Shown: positions 268 to 34,284 of the stretch, one piece after another
How positions within the stretch are numbered: the stretch's first letter is position 1
Layout: every line of letters starts with the position of its first letter
Origin: a virus
Strand: one strand, 5' to 3'
UHGV virus genome: UHGV-0031292
DNA length: 39,344 nt
The notes under the pieces: generated by a model
The model's input: the letters and a program-made list of their open reading frames with translations, nothing else
Database searches by the model: none
Told to the model about the DNA's origin: nothing
Translations under genes and position numbers: made by a program

Positions 268-1518
268 GTGCTTACCGATACAAAATTAAAGAACCTCAAG
301 CCACAGGACAAACTGTACAAAGTTTCCGATCGTGACGGGCTGTATGTAGCTGTGCTTACGTCAGGTACGGTCTCGTTTCGCTATGACTACCGTATCAACG
401 GTCGCCGCGAAACACTGGTAATCGGGCAGTATGGGCGTGACGGTATCAGCCTGGCAGAAGCGCGAGAAGAACTGATTGCTGCAAAGAAGCTGCTTAAAGC
501 AGGCCAGTCACCGGCTGCGGCTAAACGTGACGGTATCAAAAAGATTCGTGGTGCCGAGACGTTTGCGGTACATACCGACAGTTATATGAAACACGTCATC
601 CTGGCTGAAAGTACCCGCGCAATGAAGCAGGCAGTGATCGACCGTGACATACTTCCGGTTCTTGGCAACAAAATGATGGCTGAAATTACCACATCGATGG
701 TTCGTGATTTGTGTGACCGGATTGTCGAACGCGGTGGCCGGGCAACAGCAGTACAGGCCAGGGAGATCATCAGCAGCGTATACCGTCACGCCAATGACCG
801 TGGTCATGGTTTGTTTAATCCTGCGGCTGACATTAAACCTTCGTCTATCGCCATATTTAAACCACGAGAGCGAACACTGACACCAGAAGAAATTGGCCTG
901 TTCTTCCGTACGCTGGATGCCATTGGTGCTATGGGCACTATGAAAATGGCTTTAAAGCTGGTGCTTATCACTATGGTTCGTAAAGGCGAATTCACCAATG
1001 CAACGTGGGATGAAATAGATTTTAAAAAATGGACATGGACAATTCCTTCAGACCGCATGAAGGGAAGCCGGGCGCACGTTATTTACCTGCCTAAACAGGC
1101 ACAGGATATATTGGTCGGGTTGCAGATGTGCGCTGGTGGAAGTGAATATCTGGTTCCTGGTCGTTACAATTTCCGGAAGCCATTATCTAATGCCGCGCTG
1201 AACTCTCTGATCGACAGAACGGTGAAAATAATAAATGAAGATGGTGAGCATATTCAGGACTTCACCGTACACGATATGCGCCGTACAGCCAGTACGTTGT
1301 TGCATGAGGCTGGTTATCCTTCAGACTGGATTGAAAAGGCTCTGGCACATGAGCAGAAAGGTGTGCGCGCCGTATATAACAAAGCGGAATACGCCAGACA
1401 GCGCGCCTACATGTTGCAGCAGTGGGCCGATATGATTGATTCCTGGATTAACGGGGAGCATACGGATCTGATTCCGTTCTCCCCGTCGAAGTTTGAGAAG
1501 TGGATGGCGGGGGAATAA
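268..1518 (+). CDS. int: Tyrosine site-specific integrase, P4-type (N-terminal DUF4102-like arm-binding region, C-terminal catalytic domain)
   Basis: 416-aa ORF with GTG start; N-terminus LTDTKLKNLKPQDKLYKVSDRDGLY and C-terminal HDMRRTASTLL...LAH...Y catalytic signature; adjacent to attL. Confidence 0.85.
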   Translation: MLTDTKLKNLKPQDKLYKVSDRDGLYVAVLTSGTVSFRYDYRINGRRETLVIGQYGRDGISLAEAREELIAAKKLLKAGQSPAAAKRDGIKKIRGAETFAVHTDSYMKHVILAESTRAMKQAVIDRDILPVLGNKMMAEITTSMVRDLCDRIVERGGRATAVQAREIISSVYRHANDRGHGLFNPAADIKPSSIAIFKPRERTLTPEEIGLFFRTLDAIGAMGTMKMALKLVLITMVRKGEFTNATWDEIDFKKWTWTIPSDRMKGSRAHVIYLPKQAQDILVGLQMCAGGSEYLVPGRYNFRKPLSNAALNSLIDRTVKIINEDGEHIQDFTVHDMRRTASTLLHEAGYPSDWIEKALAHEQKGVRAVYNKAEYARQRAYMLQQWADMIDSWINGEHTDLIPFSPSKFEKWMAGE

Positions 1519-5366: not shown

Positions 5367-5951
5367 TTATTGTTTGCTTTTTTCGTTCTGGTTGATGACA
5401 AATTCAATGTAACTTTCGATCTTTGCTTTCTCGGTTTCGGGTAACAATGCGTAGCGCGAGCGGTCATAGTTGATGGTCGCAGGGTCGTGCGGGTGAATCA
5501 GTAATTCATAGCCGTGACGCCCGAATGCGGATGCAACATTCTCCAGGGTGGAAATGGAAACGCTGACCTCATTGTTTAACAGGCGGCTGATTGTCACCTG
5601 GGCGACGCCGGATGCGCGGTGAAGTTTTCCCTGTGTTGAAAGGTCGCGGCTTTCGCTCATCCAGCGTTCCAGGTTGTGAGCCGCCAGTTGACCAATGTCG
5701 CTTGGTCCGACAGGCTGAAAACCTTCCTGAGAAAGCGAGCGATCGATATCAAGCCAGTTACGGGGTTTATTGGCGGCAGCTTCAATTTTTCGTGCAACCT
5801 GGTCGCCGATAACCTTCTTGCCAAGAGCCCAGCGGTTTACCAGATTTGCCTGAGTTCCAAGTTTTTCAGCCATCCGCGTCTGAACACCATTGAATTCACG
5901 GTCGATCAAGTCGTTGAGATTTTGCCTGCGGACGTCCTGGATACTTTTCAT
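5367..5951 (-). CDS. Prophage repressor (CI-like) with two tandem HTH_XRE domains and no recognisable S24 autocleavage domain
   Basis: 194-aa ORF divergent from cro; two HTH segments (QTRMAEKLGTQANLVNRWALGKK... and HRASGVAQVTISRLLNNEVSVSISTLENVA). Confidence 0.65.
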   Translation of the reverse strand: MKSIQDVRRQNLNDLIDREFNGVQTRMAEKLGTQANLVNRWALGKKVIGDQVARKIEAAANKPRNWLDIDRSLSQEGFQPVGPSDIGQLAAHNLERWMSESRDLSTQGKLHRASGVAQVTISRLLNNEVSVSISTLENVASAFGRHGYELLIHPHDPATINYDRSRYALLPETEKAKIESYIEFVINQNEKSKQ

Positions 5952-14959: not shown

Positions 14960-15036
14960 CTGGCGTGGCATGCAGGATTCGAACCTGCGACCAACCGCTT
15001 AGAAGGCGGTTGCTCTGTCCGACTGAGCTAATGCCA
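14960..15036 (-). tRNA. tRNA-Arg, anticodon UCU (decodes AGA)
   Basis: Minus-strand 77-nt sequence GTGGCATTAGCTCAGTCGGACAGAGCAACCGCCTTCTAAGCGGTTGGTCGCAGGTTCGAATCCTGCATGCCACGCCA folds as a cloverleaf (7-bp acceptor stem, CTTCTAA anticodon loop, GGTTCGAATCC T-arm, encoded CCA). Confidence 0.85.
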
Positions 15037-15359
15037 CAACGCTGAGAGCACTTAGCCTGTTAAGGCGCCACACTTTGTCGCGGCTCCATAAATGCTCTCA
15101 TCGTTGTACCCTCGTCTCTTCCGAGGCGTCACACCGAATCGCCGGGATGGTGAATCCCCGTGCGCGGAATAAAACCGCTCGACTTGCACATTCCGGCTAC
15201 CTGGTTCGTTTGCTCGAGCAAGGGAGGGTGCCCCTTAAACGTATCCAGACCGCTATCGGCGCATGTGCCATACGCCGTACTGCTCAAAATAAAAGCTCAC
15301 TCCTCCTGTTCAATTTAACGACAAGCCAGTCAGGTTAATAACCGGAATGAACTCTTTGC

Positions 15360-32963: not shown

Positions 32964-33689
32964 TCAGAAGAACCCTGCTTTGTCGTTGATGTACTCCGCG
33001 TGCGTCTGGATATCACGCAGGCATTTGCTCACACCGACGATGTAGCAGAACATGGTGGTCAGCTCCGCCGCCGCGCCCGATACGTCGTGCCCGTCGTCCT
33101 GTAACTGGTTCAGCAGATTCATCAGCAGTGAGTTCTCCGTCAGGCCGAGAACACCAGACGGAGAATGAATCAGACTGCGGTAGCCGGGCTTCAGTGGGGC
33201 GCTGTAGGTTTTGTTCTCTATCTTCATTGCCTGCATCACTGCTGATGCTGTGGCGTTGGCTACCTGGTCGGCAACCATCTTTATGCGTTCTTCCTGCGGG
33301 AGCGAGTTTTTAATGTAACTTCCGGTGCGGCGGATCTGAGGAAGAACCTCACCTGTAACCCATTTACGAAAGCGGTAGGGGATAGTGCCTGGTGTCACTG
33401 CGTCGCGGCAGCGGAGGATCAGTGTGTAGAGGCCTGACTCGGAGATGATGTTGATCTCTTTTACTCGGCTGTCAAAAATCGCACGATGTTCATGCCCTAT
33501 GTTGAACATAGACCTTTCATCATCATCCAGTTTTTCAAGTGCTTGGGTGACGTTTTGGATACGCAGCGCACTACAAACGTCTTGGGCTACAAACCATGGT
33601 TGGCCATCGATAATGATGGAACGGATAGGGTTAACAGATTCAAATTTGAAGATGGCAGTTTGAGCATTAGCCATGGTGGTTATCTCCAC
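32964..33689 (-). CDS. Bro-N (KilA-N-like) domain antirepressor
   Basis: 241-aa ORF with N-terminal Bro-N-like segment (FESVNPIRSIIIDGQPWFVAQDVCSALRIQN); C-terminal region paralogous to the 33990 gene. Confidence 0.7.
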   Translation of the reverse strand: MEITTMANAQTAIFKFESVNPIRSIIIDGQPWFVAQDVCSALRIQNVTQALEKLDDDERSMFNIGHEHRAIFDSRVKEINIISESGLYTLILRCRDAVTPGTIPYRFRKWVTGEVLPQIRRTGSYIKNSLPQEERIKMVADQVANATASAVMQAMKIENKTYSAPLKPGYRSLIHSPSGVLGLTENSLLMNLLNQLQDDGHDVSGAAAELTTMFCYIVGVSKCLRDIQTHAEYINDKAGFF

Positions 33690-33692
33690 TTA

Positions 33693-33706
33693 GTGATTTT
33701 AATCAC
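33693..33706. promoter_or_regulatory. 14-bp perfect palindrome GTGATTTTAATCAC immediately upstream of the antirepressor start
   Basis: Starts 4 bp upstream of the ATG. Confidence 0.4.
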
Positions 33707-33827
33707 CACCGCAACGCCAATTACTGGTGGTGAACTGGACAAGGTTGGCGTACCGGCCTAAGTGGTACCGGCGTCCTTTCGGACCCCTGCCCAGCCCACC
33801 ATAATTCGGATATAGCTGTGCTTAACG

Positions 33828-33852
33828 CATAAAAAAACCACGTCTGGCGTGG
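33828..33852 (-). terminator. Intrinsic terminator on minus strand (CCACG-CCAGA-CGTGG plus T7) between the two antirepressor-like genes
   Basis: Plus strand reads AAAAAAACCACGTCTGGCGTGG. Confidence 0.55.
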
Positions 33853-33943
33853 TATGCGCCACTTAGTAACTCGGGACGCCAATCCCGGCACTGGATTTTG
33901 CCAGTGCCCGATTACTATGGCACAAGAGGAGTGCGATGTAAAT

Positions 33944-33958
33944 TTACCGCAAAGGTAA
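33944..33958. promoter_or_regulatory. Exact palindrome copy TTACCGCAAAGGTAA in the antirepressor leader
   Basis: Perfect TTACC-N5-GGTAA. Confidence 0.5.
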
Positions 33959-33989
33959 ATATAAGCACTCCAGTTGGTAATTGTAAACC

Positions 33990-34247
33990 TTATCTGGTTT
34001 GTTTTCGTAATTGTTCGACACAATAGTCGAGATGTGTTTGCAGATCCTGCATAGTCATCTGTGAGCTGGTGACGTAGTTAATCAGTGCAGTCAGTTCGGC
34101 AAGTGGGCCATCGACATTAAATCCATCCTTATCGAGATCCCGGAGTAATTTCATCAAGTGCGATCCCTCCACCAGTGACCTGACGCCTCCCGGCGTGTGA
34201 ATCCTTTCGGTAAATCCGTCTTCCAGTGGATAGTGATACCGCTGCAT
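33990..34247 (-). CDS. Small antirepressor-like protein (about 85 aa), paralogous to the C-terminal domain of the Bro-N antirepressor; putatively LexA-controlled
   Basis: First ATG (MQRYHY) preceded by GGAG; shared motif H(T/S)PxGV..L.E.S.LM.LL..L..DG..V.G...ELT.....V...........LQTH..Y with 32964-33689; LexA box about 22 bp upstream. Confidence 0.55.
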   Translation of the reverse strand: MQRYHYPLEDGFTERIHTPGGVRSLVEGSHLMKLLRDLDKDGFNVDGPLAELTALINYVTSSQMTMQDLQTHLDYCVEQLRKQTR

Positions 34248-34268: not shown

Positions 34269-34284
34269 CTGTATAAATATACAG
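34269..34284. promoter_or_regulatory. LexA (SOS) box CTGTATAAATATACAG (20-mer AACTGTATAAATATACAGTA)
   Basis: Near-perfect match to the CTGT-N8-ACAG consensus, about 22 bp upstream of the antirepressor-like gene start. Confidence 0.7.

Follow-up and report, generated by a model that had tools for sequence, protein, structure and literature searches.

The closest described relatives of the element analyzed here are the immI region (c4-icd-ant) of phages P1 and P7 and the isrK-orf45-anrP locus of prophage Gifsy-1. The element is a non-coding spacer of ~300 bp in the virus genome UHGV-0031292 (39,344 nucleotides, analyzed in full and called the window below), located between two minus-strand genes that encode an 85-aa protein and a Bro-N antirepressor, Ant. 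For the C4 RNA of P1, Hartmann et al. reportedly found in 1995 that RNase P makes the 5' end and that a stable RNA of ~77 nt is excised from a precursor. C4 is a processed, trans-acting repressor of icd/ant translation (PMC8546580) and is annotated as such in the P1 GenBank record, where the order of elements is the C1 operator Oc4, the promoters P2c4 and P1c4, the target sites a1 and b1, the 77-nt C4, the target sites a2 and b2 (with the annotation "repression of icd ant translation"), icd and ant. For Gifsy-1, the passages of Hershko-Shalev et al. (2016; PMC4825925) considered here describe that the polymerase partly reads through the IsrK terminator, that an ~80-nt RNA (STnc1160) is processed from the read-through transcript, and that IsrK in trans raises anrP translation ~140-fold; its authors considered, by analogy with the CI RNA of phage P4, that IsrK might inactivate STnc1160. 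Going by the same passages, Hfq binding of IsrK and its trans-activation of antirepressor translation have been shown for Gifsy-1 only. The C4 and c4-a1b1 RNAs were catalogued in 2010 (PMC2864571), and in the APSE phages of Hamiltonella C4 and isrK matches lie beside a Bro-N gene, with a' and b' matching a region upstream of it (PMC7313666); the APSE case differs in being annotation only and in its distinct host and phage lineage. The spacer in the window carries an already known kind of phage immunity switch, with two of these catalogued families in tandem. It is a real, conserved and almost certainly functional immunity switch, and we consider it quite probable that it is an RNA module of the P1 immI type, in which an IsrK target mimic and C4 together gate ant translation.

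Searched over its full length against Rfam with gathering thresholds, the window gave three matches, to isrK, C4 and a tRNA-Arg. The isrK and C4 matches (E-values 4e-14 and 2e-12) lie 24 nt apart, directly 5' of ant, and both are full length: isrK (RF01394) scores 67.2 bits against a gathering score of 50 over model positions 1-77, and C4 (RF01695) scores 66.0 bits against 45 over model positions 1-87 (E 1.7e-12). The elements of the arrangement, read in the direction of ant, are the following.

33914..33942, minus strand: sigma-70-like promoter, with -35 TTTACA at 33942..33937, a 17-nt spacer and a TG-extended -10 CATAGT at 33919..33914
33907..33831, minus strand: IsrK-like RNA of 77 nt, comprising hairpin 1, hairpin 2, a single-stranded stretch and an intrinsic terminator
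33853..33831, minus strand: intrinsic terminator ACCACG-CCAGA-CGUGGU plus U7, with the stem at 33853..33837 and the U-run ending at 33831
33806..33723, minus strand: C4-type antisense RNA (Rfam RF01695)
33674..32964, minus strand: ant, encoding the Bro-N antirepressor (236 aa), the gene that the module would regulate; ATG at 33674

The predicted transcription start at ~33907 is the first base of the isrK match, and the -35 and -10 hexamers are invariant in all 63 aligned leaders. No other promoter-like site was found before ant; a second promoter between the IsrK terminator and C4 was rejected, as this spacer is only 24 nt long and holds no such site. The terminator is of modest stability, and partial read-through of it is expected. 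Read-through, which an original prediction made by a model from the letters of the window had proposed as one layer of antirepressor control, is almost certainly needed for downstream expression.

The C4 segment has a minimum free energy of -43.6 kcal/mol and folds into a long closing stem that surrounds two hairpins, one capped by a tetraloop and the other by a large loop that holds the site b', and a single-stranded site a'. A conserved AAUUAU|GG junction and a CCACC 3' end stand at its borders, and from the annotated ends of P1 C4 the mature RNA is predicted to span 33800..33726 (75 nt). RNA structure prediction, which the original prediction had suggested as a check, gave folding z-scores of -2.9 for IsrK, -5.0 for C4, -5.6 for the leader as a whole (253 nt) and -3.6 for a hairpin at the site where ant translation begins. 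To compare the element across phages, we used 79 IMG/VR loci with close Ant relatives (74-100% identity), which gave 62 distinct leaders, and a set of 16 diverse phages made up of the window type and 15 further phage loci. The same C4 fold was obtained by minimum free energy in 16 of 16 homologues, with compensatory changes in 10 of the 22 pairs of its stems. The IsrK stems have compensatory changes in 7 of 13 pairs, and each of the 16 IsrK homologues closes with a terminator-like hairpin of modest stability (-7.4 to -12.2 kcal/mol) and a run of U5-U7.

The structures listed for the spacer in the original prediction are all present, with small coordinate shifts, and lie beyond chance as judged by the Rfam E-values and the folding z-scores. 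The minus-strand terminator it placed at 33828-33852 is that of IsrK. The second, supposedly imperfect hairpin exists, but it is IsrK hairpin 1, a perfect 7-bp stem (GCACUGG/CCAGUGC) at 33907..33888. The direct repeats GTACCGGC, at 33750-33757 and 33765-33772, were found to be the two arms of C4 hairpin 2, and in the 8-bp inverted repeat TCACCACC/GGTGGTGA, at 33703-33710 and 33726-33733, TCACCACC is the 3' arm of the C4 closing stem. A 14-bp palindrome, GTGATTTTAATCAC, was said to abut the ant start codon; it is present at 33693-33706 but lies ~20 nt upstream of ATG 33674. Its supposed copy at 33944-33958 is likewise a palindrome but of a different motif, TTACC-N5-GGTAA.

The sites through which the two RNAs and the ant leader could interact are laid out as follows; the last two targets lead up to the Shine-Dalgarno (SD) sequence of ant.

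33882..33876, minus strand: a1, UUGGCGU, in the loop of IsrK hairpin 2; complementary to a'
33866..33859, minus strand: b1, CUAAGUGG, single-stranded between hairpin 2 and the terminator; complementary to b'
33765..33758, minus strand: b', CCACUUAG, in the loop of C4 hairpin 2
33751..33745, minus strand: a', ACGCCAA, in the single strand between C4 hairpin 2 and the closing stem
33720..33714, minus strand: target a2, UUGGCGU, complementary to a'
33710..33703, minus strand: conserved box GGUGGUGA, between a2 and b2
33693..33686, minus strand: target b2, CUAAGUGG, overlapping the ant SD GGAG (33687..33684) by 2 nt

In the window a1 equals a2 and b1 equals b2, and complementarity is perfect throughout: b' pairs with b1 and b2 over 8 nt each, and a' with a1 and a2 over 7 nt each. 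The ant start at ATG 33674, with its SD, agrees with homologues and with the RefSeq coding sequence, and GTG 33689 was rejected as a start in its favor on grounds of SD spacing, homologues and RefSeq.

A tandem of isrK and C4 before an antirepressor-type gene was found in all loci of the diverse set: phiV10, Tyrion, the Stx phages VT2-Sakai and Stx2a_1447, Salmonella phages 118970_sal3 and SW-37, phages of Klebsiella, Hafnia and Yersinia, EC.W1-9, the phages P1, P7, D6 and SJ46, and Gifsy-1, the IsrK type locus. The isrK score falls below the gathering score (35-48 bits) in P1, P7, D6, SJ46 and SW-37; the P1 group passes c4-a1b1 instead, and this family passes in the P1-group and Gifsy-1 elements with 48-56 bits. 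Family membership, site layout and a three-way co-variation of the sites are direct observations. Among the 62 close leaders there are six site combinations, in which a1 and a2 are always identical and the reverse complement of a', b2 is always the reverse complement of b', and b1 either equals b2 or is a G.U-wobble variant of it. The 16 diverse phages have six a-types and 14 b-types, matched three ways in every case. The strength of the match was assessed by a matrix of cognate and non-cognate duplex energies, chosen over pair counting in a MAFFT alignment because spacer lengths vary. The cognate means are -19.5 kcal/mol for a1+b1 and -20.3 kcal/mol for a2+b2, compared to non-cognate means of -10.0 and -11.8 kcal/mol, respectively. 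With the a and b energies summed, nearly every C4 favors its own targets, the ties being essentially Tyrion/EC.W1-9, which have identical specificity, and one case at a2+b2. That b1 is systematically weaker than b2 does not hold in general; a difference by way of G.U wobbles is seen in the P1 group (~2.8 kcal/mol) and some others. These comparisons strongly indicate that the three RNA segments interact and that selection acts on them; the copy in the window is intact and not a relic. The earlier view of the spacer as a non-coding region controlling the antirepressor at the RNA level is supported.

A variant of the target position was observed in the Yersinia phage vB_YpM_41 (C4 at 727-814, minus strand), where b2, UCAUCAUGA, covers the start codon and not the SD. 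A C4 target can therefore occupy either part of the translation-initiation region.

The window parallels immI of P1 and P7 element by element: a repressor operator upstream of a promoter, a1/b1 hairpins, a terminator-like hairpin, C4 holding b' in a loop and a' in a single strand, a2, b2 on an SD, and an antirepressor gene downstream. The P1 promoter P1c4 (-10 TATAGT, 6 nt before hairpin 1) is the equivalent of the IsrK promoter of the window, and the C1 operator upstream of c4 is paralleled by the palindrome at 33944-33958. The a and b sites differ in sequence (UUGGCGU/CUAAGUGG versus UUGACAG/GUUAGUG in P1), but complementarity is kept at all three positions. On the other hand, the window has no icd-like open reading frame (ORF), its b2 overlaps the SD of ant itself, its Ant is a Bro-N protein, unlike that of P1, and it belongs to an epsilon15/phiV10-like podovirus (Uetakevirus), whereas P1 is a plasmid prophage. 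The upstream element of the window scores as isrK and that of P1 as c4-a1b1. When the Rfam models were applied to P1, C4 scored 68.8 bits, c4-a1b1 51 bits, and isrK 35 bits over the a1/b1 leader plus its hairpin and U-run. The isrK match across this P1 segment indicates that IsrK corresponds to an a1/b1 leader plus terminator.

The likeness to Gifsy-1 lies in an IsrK with a promoter-like site of its own and a terminator that is predicted to be leaky in the window, a C4-shaped RNA immediately downstream, which in Gifsy-1 is STnc1160 within "orf45", an antirepressor gene after it, and a1/a' complementarity; the window differs in that no orf45 frame is coupled to ant and in its b specificity. A coupled small ORF of the icd/orf45 type does exist in both VT2-Sakai and Gifsy-1. 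Our analysis shows that Gifsy-1 "orf45" (NC_010392, 34131-34214, minus strand) is a full-length C4 match (69 bits), in which AUG107 and AUG119 are C4 positions 5 and 17 and G114/C175 is a closing-stem pair (positions 12/73). With the numbering checked by AUG107/AUG119, the mutations G28A/G31A map to a1 and C162U/C159U to a'. Since the G28/G31-C162/C159 contact is the a1:a' pairing, the Gifsy-1 experiments test this contact directly. Downstream, at 34040-34126 of Gifsy-1, we found P1-type sites a2 (UUGGCGU) and b2 (AUCACCG), b2 adjoining the anrP SD GGAGG; these sites do not appear in the passages of the 2016 paper (PMC4825925) considered here. Overall, in model score, fold and site layout the window element agrees with the C4 and IsrK families, apart from a coupled ORF.

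By homology with these systems, C4 processing, translational repression and a decoy role of IsrK would combine in the window as follows. Transcription would start at ~33907 from the sigma-70-like promoter, and most transcripts would end at the 33853..33831 terminator, giving the 77-nt IsrK-like RNA that displays a1 and b1. Read-through transcripts would carry C4 (33806..33723), to be cut out, as in P1, as a stable RNA of ~75 nt, whose b' and a' would pair with b2 and a2 on the same or sister transcripts. Such pairing would occlude the ant SD and block translation of the Bro-N antirepressor, thereby protecting the prophage repressor, and IsrK, with identical a and b sequences, would compete for C4 and relieve the block. 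No ORF ends at or overlaps the ant start (AUG 33802 meets UAG after 14 codons), and as the window has no icd/orf45-like ORF, repression would act on ant directly. The module would decide antirepressor production and hence whether the prophage stays silent.

Several points weigh against this model. Direct occlusion of the ant SD is an extrapolation, since the small upstream ORF that passes repression on in the studied systems is absent, and processing, repression and the decoy role are taken over from homologous systems. The match to c4-a1b1 (RF03163), the Rfam family of the a1 and b1 targets of C4, lies at 33920..33868, overlaps isrK and reached only 44.3 bits in a permissive scan, just under the gathering score of 46.7. 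Furthermore, a1b1 is present on every transcript and C4 only on read-through transcripts, so that a decoy would need C4 to be much more stable than IsrK. In Gifsy-1, as far as the passages cited from PMC4825925 go, the cis mutation G28A in a1 raised basal anrP translation from 4 to 93 units instead of lowering it, an outcome that would not be expected from a pure decoy, and the data were explained by alternative cis structures and not by a processed repressor RNA. That explanation, carried over to the window, would make the leader a riboswitch in which a1 pairs with a' in cis in an inactive mRNA and free IsrK displaces it, giving ribosomes access to the mRNA; there would be no trans-acting C4 repressor, and the C4-shaped RNA would be a mere structural part of the mRNA or a by-product of processing. 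It is argued from mutational and structure-probing data on Gifsy-1 (PMC4825925, same passages), and the GGUGGUGA box would fit such alternative structures, as it has two possible pairing partners, the closing stem of C4 in its 3' arm (33733..33726) and the ACCACC that immediately precedes AUG. This box is kept at the same position and without sequence variation in loci L001, L082-L084 and L088-L094, and may be an additional cis switch. However, a purely cis-acting mechanism leaves unexplained why a2/b2 co-vary with a'/b' in every phage examined and why b2 is placed on the SD or the start codon; in the annotation of P1 the homologue is a processed repressor of 77 nt with a2/b2 as its targets, and the window has no orf45-like frame through which translation could be coupled. 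We regard it as unlikely. The Rfam label of isrK as an "Hfq-binding RNA", and its terminator hairpin and U-tail, typical of such RNAs, could also suggest that IsrK is chiefly a trans-acting, Hfq-dependent regulator of host genes with C4 as an incidental neighbor, but a1/b1 co-vary with the adjacent C4 in every phage examined, which is unexpected for a conserved host mRNA target and makes this very unlikely. IsrK could have an additional host role beside C4.

Two further mechanisms had been raised in the original prediction, a dedicated operator and an antisense RNA like that of P22. The palindrome GTGATTTTAATCAC is an inverted repeat a short distance before the ant start codon, as would suit the operator of a dedicated small ant repressor comparable to P22 Arc or Mnt. 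Nevertheless, it occurs once in the window, the only predicted promoters are ~200 nt upstream of it, it falls within the RNA spacer that separates a2 from b2, and 31 of 63 aligned relatives have another sequence in place of its 3' half but retain the flanking RNA sites; no Pfam family was found for the small upstream protein. The palindrome was rejected as an operator for its single copy and lack of conservation, and control of ant at the DNA level through it is highly improbable. An operator-like element is present, though not a dedicated one: it is the palindrome at 33944-33958, a site of a genome-wide set. As for the antisense proposal, sar of P22 immI resembles the element in the window in being a small RNA that limits antirepressor synthesis; in P22 this RNA arises from the strand opposite to ant and spans the ant ribosome-binding site. 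Antirepressor genes are often under antisense-RNA control, and this general analogy is what speaks for a sar-like cis-antisense RNA from the plus strand. But no plus-strand promoter-like site was found in 33600-34000, where the sole plus-strand terminator-like match is weak, the Rfam scan gave no sar match at E<=1, and the conserved structures and the co-variation are on the minus strand. The element lacks the features of P22 sar, and we attach next to no probability to this mechanism; a small regulatory RNA was correctly anticipated, but it is a same-strand, co-transcribed RNA of the C4 type that would pair with downstream sites. The P4 CI RNA (seqB with seqA and seqC) is comparable in being a processed, co-transcribed small RNA with complementary copies on both sides, but it acts by premature transcription termination of replication genes and not by occlusion of an antirepressor SD (as described in PMC4825925; the comparison is one of mechanism).

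In a wider and more tentative reading, which we regard as possible but doubtful, IsrK and c4-a1b1 are the same thing, a co-transcribed mimic of the C4 target, the circuit is wired to the SOS response, and the triple-site code sets immunity types. If this is true, the Gifsy-1 finding that IsrK activates anrP and the P1 finding that C4 represses ant are two halves of one three-RNA circuit, and the at least six a-types and at least 14 b-types define many mutually non-interfering immunity types of enterobacterial prophages. SOS transcripts passing through the terminator-less 85-aa gene would then add decoy RNA ending at the IsrK terminator, and translation of the large antirepressor would be released after the small paralogue is made. 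No minus-strand terminator-like site was found between the stop of the small gene (33990) and IsrK (33907); that SOS transcription adds a1b1-bearing RNA where the small gene is present is speculation. In the literature searched, no statement was found that equates IsrK with c4-a1b1 and the P1 leader, and none of P1-type a2/b2 sites by the Gifsy-1 anrP SD. The Rfam isrK and c4-a1b1 families cover overlapping parts of one element, and the recognition of Gifsy-1 "orf45" as a C4 homologue with a2/b2 sites suggests a simpler common model for two literatures that do not cite each other. The three-site co-variation also offers a ready natural set of orthogonal RNA-RNA specificities.

The features upstream of the IsrK promoter, and the site class to which its operator-like palindrome belongs, are listed below.

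33944..33958, either strand: operator-like palindrome TTACCGCAAAGGTAA with the motif TTACC-N5-GGTAA, 1 nt upstream of the IsrK -35 hexamer, centered at ~-44
211, 5233, 5295, 6007, 6055, 6392, 8314, 8376, 11822, 11840, 14742, 15360, 32884, 33944, 34324 and 37241: starts of the 16 TTACC-N5-GGTAA sites, 15 bp each
34247..33990, minus strand: small gene of 85 aa, paralogous to the Ant C-terminal domain
34269..34284, either strand: LexA box CTGTATAAATATACAG in the promoter region of the 85-aa gene, outside the leader

With up to one mismatch allowed, the window holds 16 copies of TTACC-N5-GGTAA, where 0.64 would be expected. A gene for a 194-aa helix-turn-helix repressor-like protein (5367-5951, minus strand) is flanked by pairs of these sites, like left and right operators, and further copies lie upstream of several early and late genes. 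The set looks like a dispersed group of operators, reminiscent of the C1 operators of P1. The palindrome at 33944-33958 keeps its position in almost every relative, as it does in phiV10, Tyrion, a Klebsiella phage and EC.W1-9. Its effect on the IsrK promoter may be repression or activation.

The 85-aa protein is 43% identical to Ant residues 157-228 (the C-terminal 72 residues; E 2e-19), so that the two genes are paralogous in that domain. It belongs to phrog_450 (PHROG, function unknown), while Ant matches Pfam Bro-N (E 9.5e-20) and phrog_130, "anti-repressor Ant" (E 4.8e-56). The LexA box is one of three CTGT-N8-ACAG matches in the window, and 45 related loci as well as phage Tyrion have it at the corresponding position. 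The gene behind it probably encodes an SOS-induced mini-antirepressor, and it is likely that repressor and SOS signals reach the module by way of the palindrome at the -35 and this LexA-controlled gene. The 85-aa gene is absent upstream of ant in 27 of the 79 IMG/VR relatives, where a different gene stands on the opposite strand; in these 27, similarity to the window starts exactly at the 33944-33958 operator. The autonomous unit therefore consists of the operator, the promoter, IsrK, C4, a2/b2 and ant, and judging from this boundary the 85-aa gene is a cassette and not part of the unit.

The window is essentially the whole genome of an epsilon15/phiV10-like (Uetakevirus) E. coli phage, and the spacer region is 99.1% identical to Escherichia phage HEMP4 and ~80% to phiV10. 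ORFs that overlap the spacer are one of 100 aa with a TTG start (33721..34023, minus strand), one of 34 aa (33758..33862, minus strand) and plus-strand ORFs of 34-91 aa. A coding function of the spacer was rejected, given the RNA-model matches, a co-variation that keeps base pairs and not codons, and the lack of a coding sequence there in RefSeq. Of 5,426 complete E. coli genomes, 457 have the leader. The RefSeq record of E. coli SBF22 (NZ_CP067235, 1226-1540) shows the IsrK/C4 region as a gap of ~315 bp with no annotated RNA, and from this one example it seems that a functional immunity element goes unmarked by annotation pipelines.

The genomic surroundings of the module are a tailspike gene and the LexA-controlled paralogue, whereas the Gifsy-1 locus lies downstream of antQ. 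The third Rfam match in the window is a phage-encoded tRNA-Arg (anticodon UCU; 14961-15037, minus strand), and a tRNA-Arg is present in Gifsy-1 too.

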